DNA of 64,000 bases from an uncultured delta proteobacterium (GCA_963802945.1 CAWDKY010000030.1:224001-288000), one strand, 5' to 3'; shown: positions 25,143 to 63,980, counted from the first letter of the stretch. The notes: generated from the letters alone by a model not told the origin. Made by a program: numbers and translations.

Positions 25143-25958
25143 ATGCCCGAGCCTTTGGTTCTCTATGAAAAAAAAGGTCCAGTCGCCATAGTTACCATAA
25201 ACCGACCGGAGAAGATGAACACTTACAACGGAGAAGTCTGCCTGCTGCTGGGTGATGCCTTTTTGGATTTCAGAGACGATCCTGATCTCTTGGTGGCCAT
25301 TCTTACCGGGGCCGGAGATAAGGCCTTTTGCGCTGGAGCCGATATGAGAGGCATGGTTCCCCCGAAGGAAGGGGAGACTGCACCTATTCCTTTCCCCCGG
25401 GGAAGGATGTTTCATGAAGGAGATATTAAGATTTACAAACCGATTATCGCTGCTATCAACGGCTACTGTCTCTCCGGAGGATTATGCCATGCCCTGCAGT
25501 GCGATATCAGGGTAGCCGCGGAACACGCCACCTTTGCCCTGCAGCAAGTCAGGTTTGGGGCCCATTCCCCGTCTTCAACCCATCTGCTGGCTCGCAACAT
25601 CGGGATGTCCAATGCCATGTACCTAAGCTTAACCGGCAGCCGGATCGACGCCAAGGAAGCCTTGCGCATGGGCATCATCCATAAAATCGTACCGATGAAA
25701 GAACTGATGGGCGCGGCCATGGAAATGGCGGAAACCCTGATGGGTAACTGCCCGTCCCATTTAAAGGCCAGGAAAGAACATCTCCTCAGGGGCTACAACC
25801 TGCCCTATGATGAGGCCAGGGCCATGGGCGGATATCTGGAAGACCAGGTCCCTGAAGAAGAAAAAAGAGAAGGAATCTCGGCCTTCTTCGAAAAAAGAAA
25901 ACCGGACTGGAGCAAGGTCCGAAAGCCAAAACCTGGTCCGTCAAAAGGAATGCGCTGA
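25143..25958 (+). CDS. Enoyl-CoA hydratase/isomerase family protein
   Basis: INRPEKMN, AFCAGAD and KPIIAAINGYCLSGG motifs; RBS ggagg before ATG 25143. Confidence 0.9.
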   Translation: MPEPLVLYEKKGPVAIVTINRPEKMNTYNGEVCLLLGDAFLDFRDDPDLLVAILTGAGDKAFCAGADMRGMVPPKEGETAPIPFPRGRMFHEGDIKIYKPIIAAINGYCLSGGLCHALQCDIRVAAEHATFALQQVRFGAHSPSSTHLLARNIGMSNAMYLSLTGSRIDAKEALRMGIIHKIVPMKELMGAAMEMAETLMGNCPSHLKARKEHLLRGYNLPYDEARAMGGYLEDQVPEEEKREGISAFFEKRKPDWSKVRKPKPGPSKGMR

Positions 25959-25960
25959 AA

Positions 25961-27151
25961 ATGAAAAAAAATACGGCTGAAATTATTGCCATCGGCTCCG
26001 AACTTCTACTGGGTCAGATCCAGGATACCAATACACCCTATCTGGCCGGCCGATTGCAGGAGATCGGCCTGGAAACCGCTTTTCAAACTATGGTCGGTGA
26101 TGATCGAAAACGGATGAACTCCGTCATCCGCCGGGCCCTCAGTCGTTCCAAGGTCATCCTTACCACCGGGGGAATCGGTCCCACGGAAGATGATTTAACC
26201 CGAGAGGTCGTGGCCGAGGTTTGCAGAAAGAAGCTGGTCTTTCACCCCAAACTATTTAAGCTCATAAAATCCTTTTTTGACCGGGCCGGCTTGGTGATGG
26301 CCCCCAACAATCGCAAACAAGCCTATCTGCCTGCCGGGGCCCGTCTCATTCCCAATCTCCAGGGAACAGCCCCGGGATTTATTTTGGAAACAGAGGCCAA
26401 AAAAATTATTGCCGTCCTGCCGGGAGTTCCCCGGGAAATGAAAAAGATGATGCAGGACACAGTCCTGCCCTTTTTAAAAAAGAAACTGGGGCGGGATCAG
26501 GGATTGATCGAATACCAGGTCCTCAAGGTCTGCGGCCTGGGTGAGAGCCGGGTGGATGAACAGATCGGCGATCTTATCAGAGAAAGTACCAATCCGGTCA
26601 TCGGTCTGCTGGCCTCATTGGGTGAGATCCGGATTCGGATCACGGCCCACGGAAAAGATAAAAAAGAAACCCAAGCGATTATTGCCGAAATGGAGGCCAA
26701 AATTCGCGGGCGTTTGGGAACGCTGATTTTTGGTCAAGGGGAAGAGACCCTGGAAGGGGTGGTAGCCCGCCTATTGGATGAGAAAAAAACGACTCTGAGT
26801 CTGGTTGAAAACTTTACAGCCGGGAGGGTCAGTCAAAGACTCCAGACCACAGGCAGCTCCTGGTTCATGGGCGGCCTGCTGTTGGCTTCAAGACAAAAAT
26901 GGCCTTTTGCAAAACCGGCCATCGCCAAAGAGGCCATGGCTCTGTTTCTGGCTGAAAAGATCAGGGAAATGTTTTCCTCCGATCTTGGCCTTGCGGCCTG
27001 GGTGGAGGGCACAGCCGACGAACGAACCCTTTCTCTGGCCCTGGCCGGAAAAATGAAAGACGTCTTTTCATACCGAATAGGCGGTTTTGGCGACACGCTG
27101 CCCGACCGGGTGGCTGTTATGGCCTTAGATTGGCTCAGAAAGAAATTATAA
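25961..27151 (+). CDS. cinA: CinA family competence/damage-inducible protein (degenerate C-terminal domain)
   Basis: IGSELLLGQ..DTN, GGIGPTEDDLTRE, GTAPG and LPGVPREM motifs. Confidence 0.9.
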   Translation: MKKNTAEIIAIGSELLLGQIQDTNTPYLAGRLQEIGLETAFQTMVGDDRKRMNSVIRRALSRSKVILTTGGIGPTEDDLTREVVAEVCRKKLVFHPKLFKLIKSFFDRAGLVMAPNNRKQAYLPAGARLIPNLQGTAPGFILETEAKKIIAVLPGVPREMKKMMQDTVLPFLKKKLGRDQGLIEYQVLKVCGLGESRVDEQIGDLIRESTNPVIGLLASLGEIRIRITAHGKDKKETQAIIAEMEAKIRGRLGTLIFGQGEETLEGVVARLLDEKKTTLSLVENFTAGRVSQRLQTTGSSWFMGGLLLASRQKWPFAKPAIAKEAMALFLAEKIREMFSSDLGLAAWVEGTADERTLSLALAGKMKDVFSYRIGGFGDTLPDRVAVMALDWLRKKL

Positions 27152-27218
27152 TAGAATAAAACCAGGACAACAAATTCAACAACGTCCCTGGAATTCACAC
27201 AACTTACAAGGAAATAGT

Positions 27219-28420
27219 ATGCAAAGAGTACTTGAAGACATCAGAGTTCTGGATTTTGGGCGATTCATTTCATGCCCGTATTGCGGCATGATTCTGGCGG
27301 ACATGGGTGCGGAAGTTATCCGGGTTGACCGGCCCGGAGGAGAAGAAGATCGTACCCACAGCCTTATAGGGCCGGACGGCAATAACCTGTCCTTTCCAAG
27401 TTACGCCCGGAATAAAAAGGGCATTACCTTGAACCTTTCGCAAAATAAACCGGAGGCCCGGGAGATTTTAGATTCCCTGGTGAAGCAGTGTGATGTGGTG
27501 ATTCACAATTTCACACCGGCCGCTGCCGAATCCATGGGTCTGGCCTACGACCGTCTGACTGCCGTTAAACCGGATATTATTTTAACGGCCATTTCCTGTT
27601 TTGGAAGCGAAGGCCCCTATCGAAATCGAACGGGATTTGATTTCATCGCCCAGGCTATGTCCGGGGCCATGAATTGCGGAGGATTTCGCCGACAAACCGC
27701 CTGTCAGGGCCTTCTTTAATCCCATGGATTATGGAACAGCCCTGGCTGCCGCCGTCGGTACCCTTCTGGCCCTGCGCCACCGGGACAAAACAGGAGAAGG
27801 CCAGATGGTTGATCTTGGCCCTCTTAAGGACGGCCCTTTCTTTTACGGCCCCGATCATTGCCGAAAAGGAAGTGCTGGGCCGGGACCGGCCTATGATCGC
27901 CAACCGCGCCCCTTATCTGACGACCACGGATTTATTTGAATGTCAGGACGGCTATGTGTTCATCGCCTCCATCATGAACAGCATCTGGAGACGCCTGGCT
28001 AAACTTATCGGTCATGAGGAACTCATCCCTGATCCGGAGCTATATAATGACTTGAGCCGGTTTGAACATAGAGACAAAATCGATCCCCTGGTAGCGGACT
28101 GGATAAGGGTGCGCACCGTGGAGCAGGTGCTGACGGAAATGGAAGCCGCCCATATCCCCTGCAGCCCCTACTACGAACTGGGCCAGGTGTCGCAAGATCC
28201 CCATATTCAGGAAACCGGCATGCTGCCTTATATCGATATGGAAGTCCCGGGTTTGAAACCATTACCCGTCAGCCCCAATCCGATCAAGCTGTCCAAAACA
28301 CCCGGCAGGATAGAAACCCGTGCGCCTCGCCCTGGAGAACACAATTTGGAAATTTACGGCAGATTACTGGGCTACAGCAAAGAAACCCTGGACGAGTTGG
28401 TTGCCAAAGGGATCATCTGA
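27219..28420 (+). CDS. Class III CoA transferase (CaiB/BaiF), two apparent frameshifts near 27685 and 27818
   Basis: LADMGAEVIRV, RNKKGITL, then DYGTA...TGEGQMVD, then APRPGEHN, in three successive frames. Confidence 0.85.
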
Positions 28421-28706: not shown

Positions 28707-29339
28707 ATGATCCAATCGACAAATCGAAGGGCAAAAAAAATTATTGTTGTGATCCTGGGGCTGGTTGCCGCCCTAGGCCTGACCTTTTGGTTGAAGTGGG
28801 TATCCGCGGAAACCAGGTCCCTCAAAAACGATAGAACTATCGAATCCAAGGGGAACCTTGATAGGGCTTTCGAAACAGTCCGAAAGGTGCTCCAGAGTCC
28901 CCGTTGTCAGAACTGTCATATCCCGGGAGATGCCCCACTCCAGGGTGATCTCGGTAAAGTCCATGTTATGGATGTTAAACGGGGGGAAGACGGTCGAGGG
29001 AAGACGGACTTGCGGTGCACCGACTGCCATCAAAGTAAAAATGGAAGCCTGCCTCATACACCGCCGGGTGCCGTTGATTGGCGTTTACCCTCCCCTTCCA
29101 CTCCCATGGTTTTTATCAAGCTGTCGGCCAATGAATTGTGCAGTAATTTGAAGAACCCCGCCAAGAATGGGGGAAAAACGCCCGGCCAATTGATAGATCA
29201 TATCTCTAAAGACCGATTGGTTCTCTGGGGATGGGCCCCCGGGCCGGGCAGGAAAAAGCCGCCTGTCTCCCATAAGGAATTTGTGGCTGCTTTTTCTAAA
29301 TGGGTGCGTGCCGGTATGCCCTGTCCAAAAAACCGTTAA
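28707..29339 (+). CDS. Exported diheme c-type cytochrome-like protein
   Basis: N-terminal hydrophobic segment; two CxxCH motifs (CQNCH, CTDCH). Confidence 0.75.
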
Positions 29340-29382: not shown

Positions 29383-29938
29383 ATGGATTTTGATTTAACC
29401 GTTATCCCTGCCGAGAGAATTGAGCAGGCCATTTTTCTGATTCGTGGACTTCGGGTTATGATTGACGCCGACCTAGCTATGCTTTATGGAGTGACAACGA
29501 AGGTCCTCAATCAGGCTGTCAAACGCAACAAGGATCGTTTTCGGGAGATTTCATGTTTCAACTGACTGCGGAAGAAAAAATGGAGGCGGTCACAAATTGT
29601 GACCACCTTTCCCGGCTTCGCTTTTCACCAGTCCTCCCTTATGCCTTTACCGAGCATGGCGTCCTTATGCTTGCCAATATTTTAAACTCGGACCGCGCTG
29701 CGCGGGTTAGTGTTCAATTGTCCGTACCTTGGTACGATTGCGAGAAACATTGTCCACCCATGCTGATCTGGCCAGAAAAATCACCGAGATGGAAAAGAAG
29801 TATGATGCTCAGTTCAAAGTGGTTTTTGACGCCTTGCGGGCCTTAATGGCTCCGCCACTGAAAACGAAACGAAAGATCGGCTTTGATCTCAAGGAAAAAC
29901 AGGCACGATACAGCACAAAGAAACCTTCGCGAAAATAG
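29383..29938 (+). pseudogene. ORF6N (KilA-N-like) DNA-binding protein, two frameshifts
   Basis: [32 protein letters not shown] and EKKYDAQFKVVF...KIGF spread over three frames. Confidence 0.88.
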
Positions 29939-30091
29939 GAGGTGTTGACTTTAACTGTTTGTTGTTTACCCTCGAAGTACCGCAACGTATGCAACAACGC
30001 CCCCCATGTCAACCTAATTTGGTTTTGTATCAGCATCCTCCTTTTATATTTTATGTAGACTCTTGACACAGGATACGTTATAAGGCCCGCC

Positions 30092-31039
30092 ATGAGTTTG
30101 ACGACAAAATTTATCATATTTCAGGCCATGATTATTGTGCCTTTTGTCCTTGGGTCATTGACCAAGGAACGCTTTTCCAATCAGACCGGTTTTAGCAAGA
30201 AGCTCGTCAGGATAAACCTTATCTGCATTGAGCCTTTAATCGTGCTCTGGAGCATTTGGGGAATCTCGCTCAAAAGTAATCTTGTGTTCTTACCCGTATT
30301 CGGCCTGGCTTTTGTCCTTACAGGAATGGCGATAGGGAAGATTTTTATCCCTGTTCTTGGCCTCTCAGGAAAGAAAAAAGCTACCTTTCTCATCAGTTCA
30401 TCTCTGGCTAATCACGGGTTCACCATGGGTGGTTTTCTGTGCTATCTGCTTTTGGGCGAGAAAGGGCTCGGGCTTTCTTTCATATTCATCTCCTACTTTA
30501 TGCCCTACATATTCCTGGTCATATTTCCATATGCATCACTGGCCTCGACGCCTGCCCGATATGATAGGCGATTTGTCAAAGATTTTTTTACCAACATTCA
30601 GAACATGCCATTATATGTATTTTTCTTTGCCCTGGCTCTTCAGGGGTGCGGACTTAAAAGGCCGGAAATATTTTTCCCCATTGACATCCTGCTTATGATC
30701 GCTATTGCCTTGTATCATTTTTCCCTTGGCATCAATTTTGAGTTTAAAGAAGTCCTCTCTTCCTGTAAAGAAAATACAGCACTCGGCCTGATTAAATTTT
30801 TTATCATTCCCATGATCACCTTCCTGGTATTACGATGGGTAGCCATTGATCCTCAGATAGAGGGAGTGATCATGCTTCAATCATTTATGCCTACGGCCGT
30901 TTATTCAGTGATGGCCCCTGTGCTCTATGATCTTGATGCCAAGCTGGCCTCATCTATGTTTGTGGTCAATACGCTCATTTTCCTCATGGTCGTGCTGCCG
31001 ATAGTATTCATGCTCAAAACAAGCCTATTAGGAATGTAG
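30092..31039 (+). CDS. AEC (auxin efflux carrier/MTP) family transporter
   Basis: About 10 hydrophobic segments; N.G..G and IKFFIIP...MPTAV motifs. Confidence 0.8.
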   Translation: MSLTTKFIIFQAMIIVPFVLGSLTKERFSNQTGFSKKLVRINLICIEPLIVLWSIWGISLKSNLVFLPVFGLAFVLTGMAIGKIFIPVLGLSGKKKATFLISSSLANHGFTMGGFLCYLLLGEKGLGLSFIFISYFMPYIFLVIFPYASLASTPARYDRRFVKDFFTNIQNMPLYVFFFALALQGCGLKRPEIFFPIDILLMIAIALYHFSLGINFEFKEVLSSCKENTALGLIKFFIIPMITFLVLRWVAIDPQIEGVIMLQSFMPTAVYSVMAPVLYDLDAKLASSMFVVNTLIFLMVVLPIVFMLKTSLLGM

Positions 31040-31045
31040 AGGTAA

Positions 31046-31121
31046 TTCGGAAATTCCATATGGGGATTTAAGAATCTCCATGGAAAGGAAGCGGGACTGG
31101 ATGCAAAGGGATTCACCATGA
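31046..31121 (+). pseudogene. Probable C-terminal remnant of a RelE/HigB-type toxin
   Basis: SEIPYGDLRISMERKRDWMQRDSP*, with the stop overlapping the next ATG (ATGA). Confidence 0.45.
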
Positions 31122-31453
31122 AAAGAAAGACCAATTTTGATTTATACTTGGAAGAACAATTAAGAGATAAAGCCTTTGCCGCCCGTTTTAAAAAGGCCGG
31201 TGATGCCTGGGAGGTGGCCATGAAATTGGCCTCCCTGCGCAAAAAATCAGGTTTATCCCAAAAAGAATTGGCCGAAAAAGTGGGAACATCCCAACAACAA
31301 ATCAGCCGTCTGGAATCGCCGTCTTACGAAGGCCATTCTTTAAGCATGTTGCGGCGCGTGACTGAGGCTCTGGGCGGAACGATTCATTTAGAGATTTATT
31401 ACAAAAAGCAAACAAAGCCTTTGGCAGCGGCTGAAAGGAAAACACCTTACTGA
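31118..31453 (+). CDS. XRE-family HTH protein (HigA-like antitoxin)
   Basis: LRKKSGLSQKELAEKVGTSQQQISRLE. Confidence 0.88.
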   Translation: MKRKTNFDLYLEEQLRDKAFAARFKKAGDAWEVAMKLASLRKKSGLSQKELAEKVGTSQQQISRLESPSYEGHSLSMLRRVTEALGGTIHLEIYYKKQTKPLAAAERKTPY

Positions 31454-31508
31454 AAAAGTTGAACTCCCTCCCGGACAATCAGTATAAAAGAGTCATAATC
31501 CCAAGAGG

Positions 31509-31615
31509 ATTGAAAGATTTCCGGAAAATTTTATGTTTTTCAGGCCGCCAAGGGTGAAATGGAATCTTCTTTGAAATCACAATTGGTGATTTCAAGTTAA
31601 GCAAAAGCGAAAATA
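31509..31615 (+). pseudogene. Internal plus 3'-end remnant of an ORF6N paralog
   Basis: IERFPENFMF..., palindrome encoding LKSQLVISS, then gcgaaaatag as at the ends of other paralogs. Confidence 0.75.
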
Positions 31616-31900
31616 GGAGTTGTTGACTTTAACCAATTGATATATTCTAAAGTATCCGTTCAAATGAAAGGCGAAGGAGTTTAACCCTTTGAATCCTCGA
31701 ATCCTTGGCTCTGCTCGGCTCAGCTCGCCGCAAGCCTTGAACCCTGTTTTTCTTGAGGCTGGCCTAGGAAGCAGTCCTCTAACACCCCCATTTCTTGAAA
31801 AAAGAAATGGGGGTTCGTTTTGAGGTGAATAATAAAAAGGAATAAATCAAAAATAATCGGACCATGGGAAACGATAAGTTGTTTTAGGACCAAGGTCCCC
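31616..31900 (+). repeat. Type-F leader module + shared terminator-like hairpin + tail ending aaggtcccc
   Basis: Homologous to 36400-36633 and 39842-40137. Confidence 0.85.
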
Positions 31901-31944
31901 TTCAACTATGAATTCAAAAACCATTTGGAGCAAGGAGGAAGGTA

Positions 31945-33495
31945 ATGAGTAAGCAGGCAGCTCTTAATGAGCTAAAAAGGCGTAAGGAAGTAACTCAGGC
32001 CTTAGGCGGACCAAAGGCCATTGAGAGGCACAGACAAAGAGGACATCTGACCGCCAGGGAGCGGCTTGATAAATTGCTGGATAAGGGATCATGGCGGGAG
32101 ATAGGAGAACTCGAGCAGTTTGTCGGACCGGATGGTCAGGAATATCATGTCAATAAAATTCACGGATACGGCAAAATAAACGGTCGGATTGTCATCGTTC
32201 AGACTGATGACAGTACCATTCTGGCAGGGACAGGAGCCCCTAGTGTGTCAGGCCTGTCGCGGAAGAAAGGTCTTCACGACGATTTGCTGCCGGAAAGAAA
32301 CTTCCCTTATATCAGGCTCGGTGAGAGCGGTGGTGTGCATCTACAAAGCGTCATGGGCTCCACCGGCGTGCTGGCTATAACCTACCCGGCCACGAGGTTA
32401 CTCTATCCGCGACGCGTACCCAGGGTAACCGGTATTATGGGTTTATGTTTCGGAGACCCAACCTGGCAAGCCTCCATATCCGACTTTGTGGTACAGGTTA
32501 AAGGGACCTGCATGGCTGTTTCCGGTCCACGCGTCTTGGAAGTGGCCTTAAGTGAAAAGATCTCCCCCGAAGAGCTGGGCGGCTGGAAGCTGCACGCGGA
32601 AGTGACCGGACAGGTGGATGCCTTTGCTGAGGACGATGAACACTGCCTGCAGATCATCCGGGAATATTTATCCTACATGCCCTCCCATTGCGATGAGGAG
32701 CCGCCCTACGTGACAACGGAGGATCCACCTGACCGCAAAACTGAAAAATTGATGGATATTATTCCGGATGTGTCCACCAGGGCTTATGACATGACCAGGG
32801 TAATCAAGGATATGGTGGATGACGGGAAAATTTTTATCCTGAAGCCCTTTTTCGGCAAAGCCCTTATCACCTGCCTGGCCCGCATGAACGGTCGAGTGGT
32901 AGGCATTCTGGCCAACCAGGTCCTTTATAATGTGGGTGCGGCCGGGGATCAGGAATGTGAAAAAGCCACCAGTTTTATAGTCCTTTGCGATTCCTTCAAT
33001 ATTCCGATCATCAATTTGTCGGACACCCCCGGTTTTTTAGTCGGCAAGGAAGCTGAACGCAATAAAATTCCATCTATGATCATGAATTGGATGGAGGCCC
33101 TGGCCCTGGCCACTGTGCCCAAGATCACGGTCATTATCCGTAAGGCCTACGGTATGGGTATTTCCAATATGGGCGGCCCGAACTGCGGGGCCGACTTTAT
33201 CGCCGCCTTGACCACGGCTGAAATAAGTTTCATGTCTCCGGAAGCGGCGGCCAACGTGGTTTGGGAGCGAAAAATCGCTGAGGCTGAAGATCCGGAAAGG
33301 GAAAGAAAAAGACTGATCGAAGAAATGCAATACGGGAGTGCTCCCTGGCAGGCCGCTACTGACGGTTGGCTGGACGAGGTATTGGATCCCAGAGATTTGC
33401 GGACCTGGGTAATCGAGCGGCTGGAAATCATGCACAGCCGTAAAAATGGTTTTATGAGTCAGAAGAAATTGCAGGATTGGCCAACCGGCTTTTAA
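31945..33495 (+). CDS. Acyl-CoA carboxylase beta / carboxyltransferase
   Basis: LTARERLDKLLD, EELGG..LH, LSDTPGFLVG and IIRKAYG motifs. Confidence 0.9.
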   Translation: MSKQAALNELKRRKEVTQALGGPKAIERHRQRGHLTARERLDKLLDKGSWREIGELEQFVGPDGQEYHVNKIHGYGKINGRIVIVQTDDSTILAGTGAPSVSGLSRKKGLHDDLLPERNFPYIRLGESGGVHLQSVMGSTGVLAITYPATRLLYPRRVPRVTGIMGLCFGDPTWQASISDFVVQVKGTCMAVSGPRVLEVALSEKISPEELGGWKLHAEVTGQVDAFAEDDEHCLQIIREYLSYMPSHCDEEPPYVTTEDPPDRKTEKLMDIIPDVSTRAYDMTRVIKDMVDDGKIFILKPFFGKALITCLARMNGRVVGILANQVLYNVGAAGDQECEKATSFIVLCDSFNIPIINLSDTPGFLVGKEAERNKIPSMIMNWMEALALATVPKITVIIRKAYGMGISNMGGPNCGADFIAALTTAEISFMSPEAAANVVWERKIAEAEDPERERKRLIEEMQYGSAPWQAATDGWLDEVLDPRDLRTWVIERLEIMHSRKNGFMSQKKLQDWPTGF

Positions 33496-33586
33496 ATGAA
33501 TCCGCAAAGACTGAAGTCGTCGGCGTCTGGCCGATCGATCTCAGAAGATCCAGTTAATTACACGGAATCATCGTAGGAGGAGACAC

Positions 33587-34534
33587 ATGGAAAAACGCAA
33601 ACTGGGAAATTCGGGATTGGAGATTGCCCCATTGGTTTTAGGTGGCAACGTATTCGGCTGGACTGCAGATGAATCCATGTCCTTTAAAATTATGGATGCC
33701 TTCATCGCGGCAGGATTCAACCTCATTGATACGGCGGATGTCTATTCGCTGTGGGTTCCCGGTCATAAGGGCGGGGAGTCCGAAGCCGTTATTGGCAAGT
33801 GGCTGAAACAAAGAGGGAAAAGGACGGATGTGCTCATTGCCACCAAAGTCGGGATGCCGATGGGACCCGATAAGAAAGGATTATCGAAAGCCTATATTAG
33901 ACGCGCCGTGGAAGATTCGCTCCAACGCCTGCAGACGGATTATATCGATCTCTATCAGTCGCATACCGATGACCAGGACGCCCCCCAGGAAGAAACTTTA
34001 ATTACTTATACACAACTGATCAAAGAAGGGAAGGTGAGGGCGATTGGCGCTTCGAATCACAGCGCAGAAAGGCTGGCCCGGGCACTGCAGATCAGTGAAG
34101 AGCATGGATTGGCCGCCCATCAGACTTTACAGCCTCTTTATAACCTCTATGACCGGGCCGGATTCGAAAAGGATCTCGATCCCCTCTGCCGTGAAAAAGG
34201 TCTGGGTGTGATCAGCTACTATTCATTGGCCAGCGGATTTCTCACGGGCAAGTACCGATCGGAAAAGGATTTTACGAAAAGCCCCCGGGGACAGGGGATG
34301 AAACGTTTTCTTAATGACCGGGGATACAGGATTCTGGAGGCACTGGATCAAGTGGCCGGCCAGTATGGCGCTACTCCCGCGACCGTGTCGCTGGCCTGGA
34401 TGCTCAAAAAGCCCGGCCTGACGGCCCCGATTGCCAGCGCCACTAGTCTGGAACAATTGAGCGAATTACTTAAAGCCCCTGGGCTTGATCTTGATAAGAA
34501 TTCGATTGAATTGTTGAACCAGGCCAGTTCCTGA
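33587..34534 (+). CDS. Aldo/keto reductase
   Basis: IDTADVY, LIATKVG, SLQRLQTDYIDLY and IGASN motifs. Confidence 0.93.
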   Translation: MEKRKLGNSGLEIAPLVLGGNVFGWTADESMSFKIMDAFIAAGFNLIDTADVYSLWVPGHKGGESEAVIGKWLKQRGKRTDVLIATKVGMPMGPDKKGLSKAYIRRAVEDSLQRLQTDYIDLYQSHTDDQDAPQEETLITYTQLIKEGKVRAIGASNHSAERLARALQISEEHGLAAHQTLQPLYNLYDRAGFEKDLDPLCREKGLGVISYYSLASGFLTGKYRSEKDFTKSPRGQGMKRFLNDRGYRILEALDQVAGQYGATPATVSLAWMLKKPGLTAPIASATSLEQLSELLKAPGLDLDKNSIELLNQASS

Positions 34535-34547
34535 CCTCAGGTCCCGT

Positions 34548-34580
34548 TTTGATCTCGAAGAGAAACAAGCCCGGTATGGC
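34548..34580 (+). pseudogene. 3' remnant of an ORF6N paralog
   Basis: tttgatctcgaagagaaacaagcccggtatggc = FDLEEKQARYG. Confidence 0.7.
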
Positions 34581-34694
34581 TTTTCCCTAACATCTTATCA
34601 CTGACATCTTCCTCTGCTTTTTATCCTAAGGGATATCAGTCAGTTATTCACTAACATCTTTTTACTGATATCTTCTTGCTCTTTATGCGGGGGG

Positions 34695-35048
34695 TTGACT
34701 TTAATTTTTAACAGGTTTAATAAGTTATATTACCTTAGCTTCATAACTATAAAGCGAATAGCCGTCAACAGGCCTAACCGCTGTTCGCCGAACAACGAAC
34801 GATCCGGCTTCCATTCGATCGGCTTTGCCGATCTCAGGGGGAGACTCCCTGAAGGGAGTCGGACAGGGAGCCTCTTTTGAAGCCCGGCATATCTGCTCCT
34901 AACTGGGAGCCTTTTCAAAAGCTCGACGAAGTCGAGCGGGTCCGGGCGGAACGAACTACGAACGACGAACGTTTTTAGTACCGAAAGGCGTCCATGAAGC
35001 AGTTCAACCAAACCCCATTTTTTTAAAAAAGAAATGGGGATTTTTTTT
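34695..35048 (+). ncRNA. Candidate structured leader RNA (type B) with promoter and terminator-like hairpin
   Basis: TTGACT-17 nt-TAATAA, gcttcata...aaagcgaatagcc, variable insert, ccgaaagg..ccatgaagc, ccccattt../..aaatgggg-T tract. Confidence 0.55.
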
Positions 35049-35069
35049 ACAATCTCTCATTGAGATCTT

Positions 35070-35612
35070 ATGGAATCTTTAGTGCCAGTGGAGGTTATTG
35101 AAAAGAAAATATTTTTGATTCGAGGTCAAAAAGTTTTGCTGGATAGAGATCTTGCTGATCTCTATGATGTGGAAACCAGGGCGTTGAACCAAGCGGTTCA
35201 ACGCAATATTAAGAGATTCCCGAATGATTTCATGTTTACTTTGACCAGAGAGGAGATCATGAGGATATCACAAATTGTGACATCCTCCGACATTAAATTC
35301 TCCAAACAAGTTCGTGCTTTTACGGAGCAAGGCGTGGCTATGCTTTCCGGAATCCTGAATAGCGATCGAGCGATAGAAGTGAATATTCAAATTATGCGGG
35401 CTTTTGTAAAACTCCGGGAGATGATCGCTACTAATAAAGACCTGGCCCGGCGGCTGGATAATCTGGAAAAGAAATATGACAGCCAGTTCAAAGTGGTCTT
35501 TGACGCCCTGCGGGCTTTAATGTCCCCGCCGGCCAAAACCAAACGTAAAATAGGTTTTGATTTAAAGGAGAAGCAGGCACGGTACGGCATAAAGAAATCT
35601 TCGCGAAAATAG
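35070..35612 (+). CDS. ORF6N domain (KilA-N-like) DNA-binding protein
   Basis: [42 protein letters not shown] and KRKIGF motifs. Confidence 0.92.
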   Translation: MESLVPVEVIEKKIFLIRGQKVLLDRDLADLYDVETRALNQAVQRNIKRFPNDFMFTLTREEIMRISQIVTSSDIKFSKQVRAFTEQGVAMLSGILNSDRAIEVNIQIMRAFVKLREMIATNKDLARRLDNLEKKYDSQFKVVFDALRALMSPPAKTKRKIGFDLKEKQARYGIKKSSRK

Positions 35613-35618
35613 GAGTTG

Positions 35619-35835
35619 TTGGCTTAACTGGTTAATAGGTTTATAAATAAATCACTTAAACCTGGCTTCATAAATATAAAGCGAATAGCCCTCAACAGTC
35701 AGCAGTCAGCCTAAGCCCTTTAGATTTTTCCTGACCGCCGATCGCTGATTACTGACAGCTCTAAACCAAAGGATCGTCCATGAAGCAGTCCCCCAAGACC
35801 CCATTTTTTAAAAGAGAAGATGGGGTTTTTGTTTG
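35619..35835 (+). ncRNA. Candidate type-B leader RNA copy
   Basis: ggcttcataaatataaagcgaatagcc...cagtcag heptamer stem...ccatgaagc plus hairpin. Confidence 0.55.
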
Positions 35836-35850
35836 CGGAGGAAATTCTAA

Positions 35851-36399
35851 ATGGATTCTATAATCCCAGTAGAAGTGATTGGACGAAAAATTTTATTGAT
35901 CCGCGGCCAAAAGGTGATGCTGGATGCCGATCTGGCAAAGCTTTACGGGGTGACAACCAAGAGATTGAATGAACAAGTTAGGCGGAATCAGGGACGATTT
36001 CCTGAAGATTTTATGTTCCAATTGAGCTCTGATGAAAAAGCTGAGGTGGTCGCAATTTGCGACCACCTTGCCAAACTTAGATTTTCCCCTACTCTCCCCC
36101 ATGCCTTCACTGAACATGGAGTTCTCATGGTTGCCAGTGTGCTTAATACCACAAAAGCTATTGAAATTAGCGTCTTCGTTGTACGGGCTTTCGTTAAAAT
36201 GCGGGAGATGGTTATCTCAAACAAAGAAATTGTCCGGCGGCTGGATAATCTGGAAAAGAAATATGACAGCCAGTTCAAAGTGGTCTTTGATGCCCTGCGG
36301 GCATTGATGGCCCCGCCACTGAAAACGAAACGAAAGATCGGCTTCGACCTCAAAGAAAAACAGGCACGGTACGCCATAAAGAAATCTTCGCGAAAATAG
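35851..36399 (+). CDS. ORF6N domain DNA-binding protein
   Basis: [35 protein letters not shown] and KRKIGF motifs. Confidence 0.92.
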   Translation: MDSIIPVEVIGRKILLIRGQKVMLDADLAKLYGVTTKRLNEQVRRNQGRFPEDFMFQLSSDEKAEVVAICDHLAKLRFSPTLPHAFTEHGVLMVASVLNTTKAIEISVFVVRAFVKMREMVISNKEIVRRLDNLEKKYDSQFKVVFDALRALMAPPLKTKRKIGFDLKEKQARYAIKKSSRK

Positions 36400-36633
36400 G
36401 AGTTGTTGACTTAAACTAATTGATATATTCTAAATTATCCGTTCAAATGAGACGCATAGGAGTTTAACCCTATGAATCCTCGAATCCTTGACTCTGCTCG
36501 GCTGAGCTCGCCGCAAGCCTTGAACCATATTTTTTTGAGGCTGGTCCATTTAGCAGTCCGACAAGACCCCATTTTTTGAAAAAGAAGATGGGGTTTTTAT
36601 TTGGAGGGAAGGTGACTCAGAAACAACGTCCCC
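36400..36633 (+). repeat. Type-F leader module + shared hairpin, ending aacgtcccc
   Basis: Near-identical to 39842-40045. Confidence 0.85.
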
Positions 36634-36693
36634 GCCGGCAGACTACAGAAAAAGATTGACAAAAAGATCAAATAAGTTATCATAATATTTATC

Positions 36694-36978
36694 ATGTTGA
36701 TTTCGTACAAACCGCCATCTAACAAATTTGTAAAAAAACAGGCTAGGTCGTTTCAACTGGTAATCGAAGACGAGGTCGAAGCCGTCATTCAAAATCCGTT
36801 AGCCGGAGAGACCAAGAAGGGTGATTTGACCGGTTTCAGGATTCATAAATTTTCTTTTCAGGGTCAAAAATTCCTCTTGTCTTATGTTATTCGAACCGAG
36901 GGAATCGTTTTTTTTACGATCGGCTCCCATGAAAATTTTTATCGGGAATTAAAAAAGTATTTAAAGGAGGTGGGTTAA
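36694..36978 (+). CDS. RelE/ParE-like toxin
   Basis: 94 aa; NP..GE.KKGDL.G.R.HKF and IGSHENFY motifs. Confidence 0.85.
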   Translation: MLISYKPPSNKFVKKQARSFQLVIEDEVEAVIQNPLAGETKKGDLTGFRIHKFSFQGQKFLLSYVIRTEGIVFFTIGSHENFYRELKKYLKEVG

Positions 36979-37287
36979 ATGATCACCGCCGAAAAAGTGT
37001 ATAAAGAAATTTTGGATATGCAGGTCAAGGAGAGAGAAAAACTCTTCACCGTTATTGCCAGGAAGGGTTTTGAGAAAGATTCCTATTCCCACGAAGAGGT
37101 TTTCGGCGATATACGGGAATCTCCCTTTATACTCAGAGAAGCCGCCGAATATCTGGAAGTGGCCGAAATAACCCTGAGGCGATGGGTGCAATCCGGTCTC
37201 ATTCCGTATGAAAAAGTTGGAAGGAATATCGTTTTCGATCCTGATGAACTGAGGCGGGTTAAGAAATCAAAGACGAAAAAAAGATAA
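36979..37287 (+). CDS. Excisionase/MerR-like HTH protein, probable antitoxin
   Basis: EAAEYLEVAEITLRRWVQSG.IP..KVG; directly abuts the toxin gene. Confidence 0.8.
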   Translation: MITAEKVYKEILDMQVKEREKLFTVIARKGFEKDSYSHEEVFGDIRESPFILREAAEYLEVAEITLRRWVQSGLIPYEKVGRNIVFDPDELRRVKKSKTKKR

Positions 37288-37357
37288 AAAGCCAATTATC
37301 AAAAAAAAGAAGTTATCACTTCATCCCCAATTTCTTAACAAAGCAGGCAAAACCTTA

Positions 37358-37426
37358 CCCGAAAGGCTGTCCATTAAGCAGTCCATCATGACCCCATTTT
37401 TTAAAAAAGAAGATGGGGTTTTGTTT
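37358..37426 (+). terminator. Copy of the shared hairpin module
   Basis: ccgaaaggctgtccattaagcagtcc...accccatttttt..aagatggggttttgttt. Confidence 0.8.
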
Positions 37427-37449
37427 AAATAATTTTAATTGAGGTTCCT

Positions 37450-37779
37450 ATGAATTCTTTAGTGCCGGTGGAGATTATTGAAAAGAAGATTTTTTTAATC
37501 CGTGGCCTTAAAGTGATACTGGACACTGATTTGGCAGAGCTTTATGGTGTTGAAACAAAATATCTAATTAAAGCGGTCAAGAGAAATCTTTTGCGGTTTC
37601 CTGATGATTTTATGTTCCAACTCAATAAAGAGGAATCTGAAAACTTGAGGTTCCATCTTGGCACCTCAAGTCAGTGGGGAGGACGGCGTTATTTTCCCTA
37701 TGCCTTTACCGAGCAGGGGGTGGCAATGCTTTCCAGCATCCTAAGCAGTGACCAGGCTGTCAAAGCGAATAGCCTTTAG
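37450..37779 (+). pseudogene. 3'-truncated ORF6N paralog
   Basis: ORF6N motifs run to ...SDQAVK, then the sequence switches to aaagcgaatagcc of the type-B leader. Confidence 0.88.
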
Positions 37780-37920
37780 CCTTCAGCAGTCAGCCTGAGC
37801 CCTTTAGGTTTTTCCTGACCGCCGATCGCTGATTGCTGACAGCTCTAAACCAAAGGATCGTCCATGAAGCAGTCCCCCAAAACCCCATTTTTCTAAAAAA
37901 GAAATGGGGGTTTTGTTTTG
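37762..37920 (+). repeat. 5'-truncated type-B leader + shared hairpin
   Basis: Near-identical to 35678-35835. Confidence 0.85.
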
Positions 37921-37999
37921 AAGTGGATAATAGAATGGGAGGCAGTCTTAAGATTGGGGCTTGATTTGTGATCCTATTTTGAGTACAATAGAACCCATT

Positions 38000-38596: not shown

Positions 38597-39023
38597 GACA
38601 CTCCTCAAAGAGGGACGAGTTCATCAGGAAAAAATATCGTCTCAAGAGATCCATAGGGCCTTGGCTAGAGCGGAAAGGGATTTAAAAACAGCGAGAAAAA
38701 TAATGGCCGAGGACTGGGATTGGGGTTTCTCGATCACCTATAATGCCGTCCTCCAAGCTTCCCGGGCTTACATGTTTGCGCAGGGCTATCGCCCATCTCA
38801 TGGAGAAGGTCATAAAAATACTTTCGCCATCATGAAAATCTTCATGGGGAAAGAGTACGAGGACTTAATTTCCTATTTTGACCGCATGAGGAATAAACGA
38901 AATCAAGCTATTTATGATGTGGCCGGATTGATTACCGAAACGGAGGCCAGAAACCTATTTTCCAAAGCGACTGAATTTATAAAATTGATCCGCCGCAGTC
39001 TGACAGATAAAAATAGCGGCTAA
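38586..39023 (+). CDS. HEPN domain protein (toxin partner of MNT)
   Basis: AERDLKTA, YNAVLQASRA and RNQAIY; overlaps the MNT gene. Confidence 0.85.
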   Translation: MDLETLLKEGRVHQEKISSQEIHRALARAERDLKTARKIMAEDWDWGFSITYNAVLQASRAYMFAQGYRPSHGEGHKNTFAIMKIFMGKEYEDLISYFDRMRNKRNQAIYDVAGLITETEARNLFSKATEFIKLIRRSLTDKNSG

Positions 39024-39270: not shown

Positions 39271-39292
39271 CCAATCTCTCATTGAGGATCTT

Positions 39293-43434: not shown

Positions 43435-43442
43435 CCAAGAAA

Positions 43443-51299: not shown

Positions 51300-51566
51300 G
51301 AGGTCGGACCAGGCCAAGGGGGTGTTTGGGAAATGGGTTGGACAAGCCCAACGGAATAAATTTTCAAAGAACAATATAAGAAATTATGGGCAAAAAAGGC
51401 CTTAAACCGGCCTTTTTGGCCTCAAAAAGAAGCTTTTAAGCAGACGGGCCTGAGGTCAGGTCTATCATCTTGCACATTACAGATGGAGAGACGTTGTTGA
51501 ATTAATTGAATTGGTCTGTTGGGGCCCGAATAGACCAGACAACCAACGGCCCAAAGAAGGTTTTTC
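51300..51566 (+). repeat. Longest G-family spacer module
   Basis: Contains gaggtcggacc, gaggtcaggtct..atcttgcacattac, gacgttgttgaatt and ggcccgaa..ccaacggcccaaagaagg. Confidence 0.85.
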
Positions 51567-52253: not shown

Positions 52254-52364
52254 GCATTAAGAAGATCGTGTTATGGATTGGCCGACGTTTATCCCGGGCA
52301 CACCATACTTATATGCTAAGCAACTAACGGCCTAAAGAAGGTTTTTCGGTTTCTGCTTTTCTCC

Positions 52365-52393
52365 TTGCCCCGGTCTTTTTCTTGCCTTATACT
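52365..52393 (+). promoter_or_regulatory. Repeated sigma70-like promoter, copy 2
   Basis: TTGCCC-17 nt-TATACT. Confidence 0.75.
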
Positions 52394-52463
52394 CTTCCCA
52401 TCAACAAGTCAATTCTTATAAAATCATCGGTTTTAAATAATAAAAGAAGGAGGGAGGGCAAGG

Positions 52464-53073: not shown

Positions 53074-53320
53074 TGTTGAGGTCGGGCCTGGCCAAGGGAA
53101 TTAATCCTCAAAGAATTATCCAAGAAATGATGGGTAAAAAAGGCCTCATAGCCAACTTTTTACCCCCAAAAAGTAGCTTCTAAACATAAGATTTTTTACA
53201 TTTGGCGAGACATTGTTGAATGTTTGTATTGGCATTTTATGGCCCGAACAGGCCTCGAAGAAATCGAACCGTTTTGAATTCGAAGTAGGCTAAAGGCCAA
53301 ACGGATAAGAGTAAGGAGGA
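53074..53320 (+). repeat. G-family spacer, near-identical to 47517-47763
   Basis: Direct sequence comparison. Confidence 0.9.
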
Positions 53321-53710
53321 ATGATGTCCATTCGCATTGTCAGACTCGGCTCTCCCCGGGAAGCCGGAGAAGGGATTCGTCTCGGGACGGTTCGGCGGCC
53401 ACCGCGGGGGGTCCCTAAATCAGAGTATGCCAAACGCGATTTTTATGATGTCTGGCTGCCCCTTCTTTCTCCAAGCGAAGAGTTGTTAAAAGAAGGAAAG
53501 CTATCCCTTGAAGATCGGGCCTGGGCTGTTTTTAAGAGGAAGTTCCTGGCGGAAATGAACCGACCTGATCCGCGCAAGGTCTTGGACCTTTTAGCAGCTT
53601 TTTCTCAGCAAACCCATTTTTCGTTGGGATGCTATTGCGAGAATGAACACCGATGTCACCGATCTATCTTGAGAGAGTTGCTTTTGGAGCACGGAGCAAA
53701 GGTCGTTTAG
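53321..53710 (+). CDS. DUF488/YeaO-like protein, second copy
   Basis: Differs from 47764..48153 at three residues. Confidence 0.82.
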   Translation: MMSIRIVRLGSPREAGEGIRLGTVRRPPRGVPKSEYAKRDFYDVWLPLLSPSEELLKEGKLSLEDRAWAVFKRKFLAEMNRPDPRKVLDLLAAFSQQTHFSLGCYCENEHRCHRSILRELLLEHGAKVV

Positions 53711-54556: not shown

Positions 54557-54638
54557 GTTTTTGTCGCAAAGGGGGACCTTGTTGAATTCGTTGTATGAAA
54601 AATGTTGAATTCATAAGTGGGCGGAAAGGAGTGGAAAA

Positions 54639-55807: not shown

Positions 55808-55965
55808 TTGGGGTCGGGCCATGCGAACGGATTGAAAGCATAAAGAAAAAGATAAAAACTGAGGGTTGAAAATGGCCTTAAAGCTACCGTTTTACCCATC
55901 AAAAAGAAGATTCTAAACGGTTCGATAAATAGTGTTAGCCAGTCGAAAGTCAGGATTGACCCCAA
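55808..55965. repeat. G-family spacer bounded by inverted ttggggtc / gaccccaa
   Basis: 8-bp inverted termini; body is a diverged G module. Confidence 0.7.
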
Positions 55966-56002
55966 CTTCATGGAGGTTTGAAGCAAAAGAAGGAGGCTGT
56001 AA

Positions 56003-57166: not shown

Positions 57167-57450
57167 TCATCCGTACGGAAACTAGGGACAACAGCGCCCG
57201 TTTTTTTCACCAAATCAATTCGTTGGACAATTTGGGGTTCAATGATTAAAATGAATTATTATGGATAAGTCGAACCCCCGATCTTTCTTTACCAATCTTA
57301 GAGTCACCATGCTATGGCAGAAAAAAATATGGCTTCTTCTTAGAAATAATTGGATCAAAATACGGCATGTTCAATCCTGCTGCGGCTATCCGGGTGAGCC
57401 CGGCTGTTGACAAACAGAAGAGCATCAGCCTCGGTGAGGCTGAAACAGCG

Positions 57451-57546
57451 TGAGGTCGGTGATCAGGCCTATAATCTTGTACATTACAGAAGGTATGACG
57501 TTCTTAAATTAGTTGAATCGGTTTTTTATGGCCCGGAAAAACCACG
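57451..57546 (+). repeat. Partial G-family module
   Basis: gatcaggcctataatcttgtacattacaga...tatggcccg. Confidence 0.7.
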
Positions 57547-57592
57547 AAAAGGTTTTGCCTGCCTTGTATTAAAAAAAGGAGGATGAGATTCA

Positions 57593-59149: not shown

Positions 59150-59279
59150 TATTCAAAAGGTCACCTACGGACACATGCGCAAGGCGTGACGTTATTGGAT
59201 TAGTTGCGTAGGTATTGTATGGCCCGAATAGACTACGCCACCAACGGCCCAAAGAAAATTTCTCGATTTGCTTTTCTCC

Positions 59280-59308
59280 TTGCCCCGGTCTTTTTCTTGC
59301 CTTATACT
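59280..59308 (+). promoter_or_regulatory. Repeated sigma70-like promoter, copy 3
   Basis: TTGCCC-17 nt-TATACT, preceded by a G-family segment at 59188-59260. Confidence 0.75.
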
Positions 59309-59360
59309 CTTCCCATCAAAAAGAGAATTCTTCAAAAAATAGGACCTTGATGGAGGAAGT

Positions 59361-59954: not shown

Positions 59955-60158
59955 TGAGAATTTCAACAAGATGATTGATTGGGAAGAAGGTCAAAACTTC
60001 AATGTTGACATGCCTTGCAAATGATAGCTCATAGGTGATAGGGACAGATAATAGATGTTAGATATTAGATGCTGGATACTGGATACCTAATGCAAGATGA
60101 GAGATGCAAACTCAAAACTAAAATGGGATGAGGGAAAGGGGAAAAGGAGAGATTAACC

Positions 60159-61244: not shown

Positions 61245-61304
61245 TGCCTCGTTTAACAATGGATCGGGGGCAGGTCTTGAATCTGGCACCCTCTGCTTTT
61301 CTCC

Positions 61305-61333
61305 TTGCCCCGGTCTTGTTCTTGCCTTATACT
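61305..61333 (+). promoter_or_regulatory. Repeated sigma70-like promoter, copy 4
   Basis: TTGCCC-17 nt-TATACT, preceded by gggggcaggtcttgaatctggcac. Confidence 0.75.
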
Positions 61334-61428
61334 CTTTCCAGCCAAAAGAAAAGTCTTATCATGTAATATATTCTTCAAAGCTGGTCACTCCGGGGAATAT
61401 CGGTTATACTTCCTTCTGGGAAATCGCC

Positions 61429-62035: not shown

Positions 62036-62100
62036 AGGGGGTCGGACCTAGCCAACGGGTTAAATTCGAGGTCGGGGGTCAGGACTTGAATCTTGCACAC
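62036..62100 (+). repeat. Internally deleted G-family module
   Basis: ggggtcggacctagccaa...ggggtcaggacttgaatcttgcaca. Confidence 0.8.
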
Positions 62101-62150
62101 TGCGGCCTATTAAAGCAGGCTTCGCACTTAAACTTAATGAAAGGGAAAAG

Positions 62151-63173: not shown

Positions 63174-63321
63174 TTCAAAACAGCGTTCCGTAATCTGGGG
63201 AGGCGATATTAGGGGGACATAACACCGATATTCTATGCCACCACTGGTCTAAAGAAGGCCTTTCGTTTCTTGCCTGAAGTAAGAAGACGCCCTCCTCTTC
63301 CATTCCGCCCTGCTTTTCTCC

Positions 63322-63350
63322 TTGCCCCGGTCTTTTTCTTGCCTTATACT
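63322..63350 (+). promoter_or_regulatory. Repeated sigma70-like promoter, copy 5
   Basis: TTGCCC-17 nt-TATACT. Confidence 0.75.
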
Positions 63351-63410
63351 CTTCCCAGAAAAAAGGAATTCTTATCAAGAAAATGCGTTACGAAGGAGAG
63401 TTTTTTAATA

Positions 63411-63980
63411 ATGCTTAAGATGATGGCTGTGGGACCGATTCAGGCCAATTGCTATATATTGGGTTGTAACAAAACAAGGGAGGGAACTGTCATTGACCCT
63501 GGTGGCGATGCATTTAAAATAGTCAGGGAGGTGTCTAGCGCTAGGCTTAAGGTCAAATATATACTTATTACTCATGGTCATTTTGATCATACAGGTGCGG
63601 CTAAAGAATTAAAAGGGATTATAAAGGCGCCTGTATGGATTCACAGGCTGGATTCCTCCGGGCTTGGTTTTCCGCCTGACGGGACCCTCGTTGATGGACA
63701 GGAGATTGAAGTCGGGTCATACAAGATAAAGGTAATCCATACGCCAGGGCATTCCCCAGGCGGTGTATGTTTCTATGCACCAGGCGCTGTCTTTACCGGG
63801 GACACACTCTTTGCCGGTTCTATCGGACGCACGGACTTCCCGGGAGGTGATTATCAGGGATTGATTAAGAACGTGAAGGAAAAGATATTTCCACTCGGAG
63901 ATGATTTGCGCGTTTATCCTGGCCACGGTCCTGTCTCTACCATAGGGCAAGAGAGATTGAGGAACCCTTTTTTCAGATAG
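63411..63980 (+). CDS. MBL-fold metallo-hydrolase (glyoxalase II-like)
   Basis: THGHFDH, HTPGHSPG, FTGDTLF and YPGHG motifs. Confidence 0.93.
   Translation: MLKMMAVGPIQANCYILGCNKTREGTVIDPGGDAFKIVREVSSARLKVKYILITHGHFDHTGAAKELKGIIKAPVWIHRLDSSGLGFPPDGTLVDGQEIEVGSYKIKVIHTPGHSPGGVCFYAPGAVFTGDTLFAGSIGRTDFPGGDYQGLIKNVKEKIFPLGDDLRVYPGHGPVSTIGQERLRNPFFR

Follow-up and report, generated by a model that had tools for sequence, protein, structure and literature searches.

The DNA stretch analyzed here (the window; 64,000 nucleotides, G000:C30:224001-288000) comes from an uncultured member of the Syntrophales and carries an array of co-oriented, mostly single-gene units whose spacers are built from short repeat modules. 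These modules are real repeat families, oriented with respect to genes and concentrated in the array and in a handful of other regions of the genome. Comparison of assembled genomes shows that array genes swap neighbors unit by unit while control regions remain collinear. We favor, with moderate confidence, the reading that the modules are mosaic repeats resembling repetitive extragenic palindromes (REPs) and bacterial interspersed mosaic elements (BIMEs), that they are gained and lost as units, and that they act as recombination substrates through which gene units are reshuffled. The source genome (G000) is a 4.37-Mb assembly of 72 contigs (47.4% G+C; contamination, 6.72%). Relatives were found via one protein of the array genome, bear metagenome-assembled genome (MAG) titles of Thermodesulfobacteriota, Syntrophales, Smithella, or Syntrophaceae, and are coded G001, G002, and so on; sites beyond the window end are given as window-equivalent coordinates.

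Five modules make up the mosaic spacers between 45.9 and 72.4 kb, namely, L, an A/T-flanked GGCC hairpin, R, M, and N-P. The L module contains GGGGTCGGACC and is located 12 to 120 nt 3' of stop codons, in the R module GGGTCAGGTCT or a near variant of it precedes AATCTTGCAC, and N-P is promoter-like (TTGCCC-17-TATACT); a promoter scan placed this promoter-like module in five spacers of 44.5-64 kb. L and R adjoin each other directly in units about 65 nt long at 62038-62102 and at window-equivalent 72377-72445, and elsewhere the hairpin lies between them. The modules are 30 to 150 nt in length and mutually 70 to 95% alike. Copies were counted over the whole genome with nhmmer (E ≤ 0.01), which gave 8 in the array and 16 in the genome for L-R, 7 and 32 for L-hairpin, 5 and 13 for M, and 8 and 113 for N-P. 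The remaining copies cluster at C17:48-55 kb, C12:19-23 kb, C27:67-77 kb, C29:59-73 kb, C53, and C15:507-513 kb. With respect to polarity, 84 of 96 intergenic N-P copies face the gene that comes next, 21 of the 29 L-hairpin copies located between genes come after a gene of the same sense, and all pattern matches to L (9/9) and R (5/5) in the array are on the plus strand. From 29 to 44.5 kb, a second repeat set alternates with cargo and consists of ORF6N genes, a promoter-like module, a conserved hairpin module, and a K module; counted in the same way, hairpin module A of this sub-region A has 12 copies in the array and 41 in the genome, and promoter-like module A has 4 and 6.

Several other readings of the modules were examined. 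Rfam returned no matches at gathering thresholds in the window and none at an E value of ≤1 in 27-64 kb. In the M module, a conserved TATGGCCCGAA stretch comes after two direct repeats of the GTTGAAT type. The module has five array copies, at 47650-47707, 51488-51548, 53207-53264, 57497-57548, and 59187-59246, and could be a regulator binding site. A hairpin with covariation was rejected for M, as an alignment of its 13 genome copies yields no consensus structure (alifold, −1.7), and a sigma-54 reading of R and M was discarded because the GG-to-GC spacing is one off by eye. Nor does L appear to flank a dedicated gene, as the open reading frames (ORFs) of six regions with paired L or R copies are mutually dissimilar. 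L itself is tandemly duplicated at 51300-51362.

To place the array among its relatives, the 44.5-64 kb segment (19.5 kb) was compared with 30 relatives and was recovered only as pieces of at most 1.6 kb, on separate contigs or far apart, while the orthologous DNA of array genes is 79 to 97% identical in congeners. A co-oriented control region (C14:60-80 kb) remained collinear over 10 to 16 kb in 5/5 genomes; further controls were collinear over 7 to 17 kb (C15:200-220 kb) and over 4 to 6 kb in two genomes (C17:225-245 kb), and C17:250-270 kb was largely strain-specific. For the acyl-CoA dehydrogenase ortholog (82 to 100% amino acid identity), both window neighbors are missing in 80/80 loci, and its context is conserved in other genera and lost within this genus. 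The contigs of the close relative G005 that hold array genes are mosaics of pieces from other module-rich regions of G000. At the S49 peptidase-flavin reductase pair and on the right flank, the two genomes agree. The N-P-nitroreductase and short-chain dehydrogenase/reductase (SDR)-M links are kept in G008.

Several of the points at which homology to G005 is lost fall within modules. The Fe-S gene block is shared with contig C103 of G005 up to ...GCAC within R, from which G005 continues with the sequence that follows the R copy at window-equivalent 72415, such that this 11-kb difference has an R copy at each end. Both radical S-adenosylmethionine (SAM) blocks stop at 50164, just 5' of L, and the ferritin block starts at 51497 within M and ends at 52371 within P. 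The nitroreductase block also starts in P, the M24 peptidase block starts at 55963, after an inverted L core, the acyl-CoA dehydrogenase block starts at 54594, right after an M-type motif, and the pirin block ends at 46912. Altogether, 3 of the 8 homology blocks end at or beside L or R, and the others end in M, in P, or at bare ORF ends. On this point the sequence-only reading is not supported: instead of marking one crossover point, the breaks are spread over L, R, M, and P, four types of module, as well as ORF ends that carry no repeat, and this variety argues against a single site-specific crossover. Its expectation that gene order would vary was supported, in that order is not conserved in relatives and several breaks are at repeats.

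Gain, loss, and duplication of modules are also visible. An internal duplication of 637 nt (47517-48153 = 53074-53710) begins in the L-hairpin unit and ends at a stop codon. Among contigs from peat sequencing runs, which are short, 90 to 99% alike to the window, and to be read with care, one from run X2 skips exactly 57447-57565, a complete R-M unit, and one from run X1 skips 51319-51352, one tandem L copy. Most X1 pieces are at least 99% like the window, and such contigs are 158 to 274 nt and bridge nothing. A contig of run X4 links the DUF2804 end to 54572, and a module equivalent to 63222-63365 comes after the acyl-CoA dehydrogenase gene in G005 and in X2 and X4 contigs. Joints of the G005 type recur in contigs from two or three separate peat runs.

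One of the modules is linked to a REP-associated tyrosine transposase (RAYT). The genome has 10 matches to Y1_Tnp (PF01797), of which G000:C33:35430-36284 (284 amino acids [aa]) scores 84.9 bits on the RAYT model NF047646 (cutoff, 80) and 48.4 bits on PF01797, with an HYH motif followed by an RYI tyrosine readable in its translation. Both this gene and a copy on C16 have the R core at both sides in inverted orientation, and an inverted pair of the 20-nt R pattern brackets the RAYT match in six relatives (G001, G005, G010, G011, G023, and G029). The association with REP-associated Y1 transposases that the sequence-only reading had put forward therefore holds in this genome and clade. The R core 11-mer GGGTCAGGTCT occurs 30 times in the genome versus 2 for its reversed control, the corresponding 16-mer occurs 14 times versus 0, and 22 of the 30 core copies are outside crude ORFs, though ORFs cover 80% of the genome. 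With one mismatch allowed, the 20-nt pattern is present in 13/31 genomes, with a maximum in G000 (23 copies), and its reversed control is present in 0/31. This abundance is low relative to classical REPs and similar to that reported for RAYT Groups 1 and 4, for which PMC5581495, on RAYTs flanked by abundant 16-mers, gives 12 to 14 occurrences. The RAYT flanks do not form a hairpin (fold energies of −2 and 0 kcal/mol; z-scores of 0.69 and 0.88), and L-R units fold like shuffled sequence (−3.8 to −11.6 kcal/mol; z-scores of 0.63 to −0.93).

Inverted doublets of the R core occur at C16:314118/314254 (duplicated on C64) and C17:200064/200318, whereas array copies are single and all on the plus strand. 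The former, C16:314118-314254 = C64:14862-14998, is a doublet of the kind seen in REP doublets forming hairpins (REPINs), with R cores 136 nt apart; its presence on two contigs means that the MAG may hold redundant or strain-variant contigs. A repeated 1.6-kb element with its own inverted ends lies exactly within the 3' repeat copy of a RAYT, beside a frameshifted RAYT, and its G005 copy adjoins the acyl-CoA dehydrogenase gene. Two longer Y1 paralogs of 324 to 326 aa (C16:58635-59609 and C32:110202-111182) carry a helix-turn-helix (HTH) like that of the DnaA C terminus; they score 70 to 72 bits on the RAYT model, under the cutoff, and have R-core variants in their 5' flanks.

The modules also account for the short junction hexamers, GGGGWC and GWCCCC, that the sequence-only reading had named as junction motifs; the hexamers are not themselves the unit and form the most visible parts of the longer modules. 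Against 100 dinucleotide-preserving shuffles of the window, 64 hexamers were found on both strands versus 89.65 ± 8.77, and 100/100 shuffles had at least 64. The proposed enrichment therefore fails for raw counts and holds for position after stops, where tests rest on crude ORF calls: a sense GGGGWC lies within 100 nt 3' of the stop of 9/42 array genes versus 209/3810 genes elsewhere (odds ratio [OR], 4.7; P = 4e-4), of 10/26 genes in 44.5-72.5 kb (OR, 10.8; P = 7e-7), and of 1/22 genes at window positions 1-25142. The signal is weak for GWCCCC within 100 nt 5' of the start (5/42 versus 150/3810; OR, 3.3; uncorrected P = 0.025), with 1/26 in 44.5-72.5 kb. The two motif classes correspond to two sub-regions, with 15 on the minus strand and 1 on the plus strand in 25.1-45 kb and 22 plus and 6 minus from 45.9 kb. 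Eight of the 13 sites named earlier after stops are exact (45919, 47521, 50170, 51220, 54572, 55810, 62038, and 63213), as are 4 of the 9 named before genes (31895, 36628, 40132, and 55958), and the other five of each set are near-matches; the before-gene motifs are heterogeneous, comprising a terminator hairpin, the K module, and inverted forms of M and of L/R. The likeness of 27168 to the reverse complement of 54572 extends over 19 of 22 aligned columns. Inverted spacer ends were recovered at 46919/47062 and 55806/55950, while the pair suggested at 57234/57278 shares merely a 7-nt GGGGTTC core.

The limits of the array required revision. Enoyl-CoA hydratase (ECH) and CinA genes are syntenic with their left neighbors, so the variable stretch begins at about 27161 and not at 25143 as first drawn, and it continues past the window to an R copy at window-equivalent 72415 (to about 72445). 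It makes up 1.1% of the genome and has some 45 gene units, mostly single genes. Within 25143-63980, 43 gene units were counted, with DUF6530 (41209-41691) the sole unit on the minus strand, and G+C ranges from 0.376 to 0.55 in 1-kb windows, in agreement with the initial description of about 40 co-oriented genes with one exception and mixed composition. Co-orientation by itself is weak evidence: the run at 42856-70060 (22 large ORFs) shares fourth place among 829 same-strand runs, with longer runs of 26 and 23. GC skew is positive throughout 31-64 kb. The content is mostly everyday enzymes, namely, ECH, CinA, a carboxyltransferase, an aldo/keto reductase, two MaoC genes, pirin, thioredoxin, two DUF488 genes, a radical SAM enzyme, a kinase/pyrophosphorylase, ferritin, an SDR, acyl-CoA dehydrogenase, M24 and S49 peptidases, flavin reductase, nitroreductase, an Fe-S protein, MarC, DUF2804, and a metallo-beta-lactamase-fold protein, together with ParE+HTH and MNT+HEPN pairs and six ORF6N paralogs. 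Most array genes are vertically inherited genus genes with orthologs in congeners and not foreign cargo. Profile searches found no recombinase family among the gene products of 25-75 kb. Coordinates of the features are collected in Table 1.

Table 1. Features of the array and of the 1.6-kb repeated element (window coordinates unless a contig is named)
Feature	Position	Strand	Basis or remark
Inverted M-type module, left edge of variable stretch	27162-27190	-	G005:C158 homology stops 10 nt past CinA stop
CoA-transferase family III, first non-syntenic unit	27219-28420	+	Two overlapping ORFs, PF02515 positions 1-153 and 185-366
Sub-region A: six ORF6N paralogs, repeat modules, cargo	29385-44496	+	Repeat families D1-D20, nhmmer, Pfam
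ORF6N paralogs	~29385-29846 (disrupted), 35070-35612, 35851-36399, 37450-37779 (truncated), 39293-39865, 43674-44255	+	
Promoter-like module A copies	34691, 35618, 41832, 44309	+	Sub-region A; 12 hairpin-module copies interleaved
Sub-region A cargo: transporter, HTH, carboxyltransferase, aldo/keto reductase, ParE+HTH, MNT+HEPN, DUF6530 (-), two MaoC	29385-44496		
L module	45919-45950	+	Exact GGGGTCGGACC, 31 nt past stop of 332-aa ORF
Spacer with inverted R-like ends, pirin/thioredoxin gap	46919-47081	+	Ends pair in DNA fold
L-hairpin unit, then M module	47521-47628, 47650-47707	+	nhmmer; start of 637-nt duplication
L-hairpin unit, then N-P module	48796-48905, 48930-49033	+	nhmmer; TTGCCC-17-TATACT at 48990-49018
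Complete L-hairpin-R unit	50170-50315	+	3' of radical SAM gene
Tandem L (51300, 51334), hairpin, R (51454), M (51488-51548)	51300-51548	+	
N-P module	52306-52408	+	nhmmer 3.1e-25; promoter scan 52365-52393
L-hairpin unit and M module	53079-53264	+	Second copy of internal duplication; nhmmer
M-type motif	54572-54593	+	SDR/acyl-CoA dehydrogenase gap
L-hairpin unit ending in inverted L core (GACCCCAAC at 55958)	55810-55966	+	nhmmer, fold
R-M unit, R 57451, M 57497	57447-57565	+	Whole-unit presence/absence; nhmmer
M and N-P modules 5' of nitroreductase gene	59187-59323	+	nhmmer; promoter scan 59280-59308
R, then P module, 3' of Fe-S gene	61262-61348	+	Breakpoint of 11-kb difference versus G005
Short contiguous L-R unit, ~65 nt	62038-62102	+	nhmmer 4.5e-17
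N-P module 5' of metallo-beta-lactamase-fold gene	63222-63365	+	nhmmer, promoter scan
1.6-kb element copies	G000:C30:108729-110371, C17:15409-17045, C33:76049-77690		

Some features of individual genes were also recorded. The CoA-transferase family III gene is split and resembles a frameshifted pseudogene or a sequencing error; its ortholog is located elsewhere in G005, G008, and G004. The six ORF6N paralogs within 15 kb (29385-44255) share stretches up to 100% alike, two are disrupted, and a conserved SQ(I/F)VT stretch of every paralog is encoded by a perfect palindrome. ORF6N matches the single-gene PADLOC candidate PDC-S05 (1.7e-55), and MNT/HEPN match PDC-M05A/B. Neither PADLOC nor NCBIfam produced a match for DUF6530 or for the ORFs of 332, 276, 118, and 210 aa, and PADLOC returned no match for an 82-aa ORF. 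The 210-aa ORF (28707-29339) has two CxxCH motifs (heme c-type, by eye) and no Pfam, NCBIfam, or PADLOC matches. At 60031-60124, in the gap between the nitroreductase and Fe-S genes, 94 nt of low-complexity direct repeats are missing from G005 and from contigs of two peat runs.

Under the favored reading, the modules would be REP/BIME-like mosaic elements, of which at least R would be spread by the RAYT, and they may serve as portable terminator and promoter signals. As dispersed homologies of short length, and as targets of at least one insertion element, the modules would promote ectopic recombination and gene conversion, by which units between modules could be moved, deleted, or duplicated and so be reshuffled among several module-rich regions; co-orientation would then arise from module polarity and leading-strand selection. 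Several observations weigh against this account. Nucleotide-level breakpoints come from one close relative alone, the fragmented G005, and some breaks fall at bare ORF ends with no repeat (pirin at both ends and the right ends of acyl-CoA dehydrogenase, M24, and DUF488), where plain homologous recombination between modules is therefore insufficient. Modules this short and this divergent (lengths and likeness as given above) are also a poor substrate for RecA-type recombination, and R and L are not palindromes, unlike classical REPs (z-scores of 0.9 to −0.9). Terminator-like sites in 44.5-64 kb number 16 versus 23.8 in shuffles, in a scan that misses the A/T-flanked hairpins of L units, so that signal functions of the modules are ones we only infer. 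Finally, G008, G010, and G004, which are congeners at a greater distance, have the orthologs in ordinary mixed-orientation contexts with few L/R copies; the ordered array was therefore assembled within this lineage, and this suggests that the process was directed. Since the breaks at ORF edges and the ordered, co-oriented array are ill explained by recombination, we retain as unlikely, yet worth stating, the gene-capture platform of the sequence-only reading, in which a RAYT-type HUH enzyme would act in trans to cut and join single strands at L/R in one orientation, without IntI or attC. By the same token, it is doubtful that ordinary chromosomal genes of this Syntrophales lineage were moved singly into co-oriented arrays at non-palindromic, REP-like L/R sites by such an enzyme. 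An intact RAYT with its cognate repeat in the genome, the uniform plus-strand orientation of R and L at unit junctions, and the 11-kb difference that has R at either end and switches directly past ...GCAC are all consistent with capture. So are the single-gene-sized, co-oriented units that differ between genomes 90 to 97% identical, the scattered orthologs of mixed orientation in G008, G010, and G004, which would imply that genes were gathered into the array, and the toxin-antitoxin (TA) pairs, as are found in large chromosomal integrons. Yet no more than three of the eight G005 blocks end at or beside L or R, the genes enclosed by L pairs at other loci are unrelated and occur in both orientations, and L and R lack a hairpin, whereas known Y1 enzymes (IS200/IS605 and RAYT) recognize hairpins (PMC3479197 and 10.1101/279083).

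The remaining explanations require no such enzyme. The array may simply be a leading-strand gene cluster whose repeated spacers are shared regulatory signals held alike by selection, with no mobility, and the 113 genome-wide copies of N-P, mostly aimed at genes, the two links kept in G008, the positive GC skew across 31-64 kb, and the fact that same-strand runs of at least 20 large ORFs are not rare would all accord with this. We regard it as quite improbable, as modules are 80 to 96% alike over 60 to 150 nt, well beyond the needs of a binding site, and are gained or lost as units, as synteny is lost in the array and kept in the co-oriented control, and as R matches the RAYT flanks. That the shuffling is an artefact, with G000 and/or G005 contigs chimeric across repeats or with mixed coexisting strains, seems very doubtful. 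The contamination and contig number of G000, the repetition on C64 of part of C16 near 314 kb, the fragmentation of G005 into 3- to 14-kb contigs at exactly these regions, and the finding that no public run contains over 17% of the words sampled from 50-60 kb (no RNA run was listed) could be read in that way. Neighbor loss is, however, seen also in independent long-contig assemblies (G008 contigs of 0.64 to 2.0 Mb; 80 MAG loci from many projects), repeat copies are mostly <95% alike, a level at which assemblers resolve or break and do not misjoin, and G005 and G000 have the S49-flavin reductase pair and the right flank in common, with the G005 joints recurring in separate peat runs. The array is not an integron. 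TIGR02249 gave no IntI match above its cutoff over the whole assembly (top match, 79.6 bits versus 265), and an indirect test by inverted-repeat scan and folding found no attC-like imperfect palindromes in 25-64 kb, where the scan returned only terminator-type hairpins, which are the longest inverted repeats, and coding palindromes; the initial description of an array without attC or IntI was thus supported. Clusters of attC sites lacking integron integrases (CALINs) have co-oriented small units, TA pairs, and no nearby integrase, and TA pairs are also found in large chromosomal integrons. A decayed integron or CALIN would share these traits with the array, but the chance of one is next to negligible: no spacer has a 50- to 150-nt imperfect palindrome bearing AAC...GTT ends, L-R units fold no better than shuffles, and, in place of promoterless cassettes, many units have their own promoter-like module, the five such spacers standing beside 42/43 co-oriented units. 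A retro-copy origin of ORF-sized units was also rejected, as a PF00078 search of the assembly found no reverse transcriptase (0/4 candidates).

Among known systems, the array resembles the REP/BIME and RAYT systems of Escherichia coli and the REPINs of Pseudomonas in having a Y1 (HUH) gene above the RAYT cutoff with inverted short flanks, a flank sequence that is overrepresented and mostly extragenic, and spacers that, like BIMEs, are mosaics of several motifs. An insertion element within a repeat copy is also reported for REPs, which serve as insertion sequence (IS) targets, in PMC1525189. In contrast to REPs, the repeat is non-palindromic and lacks a GTAG/CGTC-tagged hairpin, its core has 30 copies versus the >100 quoted in PMC2817692, the RAYT is multicopy, array copies are single and in one orientation and not inverted doublets as in REPINs, and the intervening genes are reshuffled unit by unit. 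Putative mobile promoters (PMC3575422) are similar to N-P in placing a near-identical promoter-like stretch 5' of many unrelated genes, whereas N-P belongs to a larger mosaic with terminator-like, RAYT-linked modules. Like miniature elements derived from IS200/IS605, the R-M unit at 57447-57565 has no terminal inverted repeats or target duplication, and Y1 enzymes are present in the genome, but the subterminal hairpins of such elements were not found here. Sedentary chromosomal integrons and CALINs likewise form long co-oriented single-gene arrays with TA pairs and with content and order that vary between close relatives; here, there is no IntI, attC, or attI, units contain promoter-like modules, genes are mostly vertical genus genes, and junctions are of several types. 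Neisserial intergenic mosaic elements and minimal mobile elements use a limited set of repeat units, with gene units exchanged between conserved flanks, probably by homologous recombination. The array shares with them spacers drawn from a limited repeat set and the exchange of gene units, and it differs in taxon and sequences, in its many tandem co-oriented units, and in its RAYT link.

RAYTs and REPs are widespread, but their role in their hosts is debated, and most descriptions concern Proteobacteria, for example, E. coli and Pseudomonas. A partial literature search returned no paper linking Smithella or Syntrophus with such repeats. The present case is a RAYT-linked, non-palindromic repeat in an uncultured member of the Syntrophales, set within a mosaic of portable promoter-like and terminator-like modules, and this mosaic coincides with gene-order changes resolved to single genes, in genomes that elsewhere stay collinear for at least 10 kb. 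If the repeats merely promote recombination, the array would be a natural example of interspersed repeats breaking operon-scale order while leaving genes intact. Should the units instead be moved by the RAYT itself, integron-like gene arrays would form by a second, unrelated route, and capture by such an enzyme would constitute a gene-cassette system independent of IntI and attC, with several arrays in one genome.

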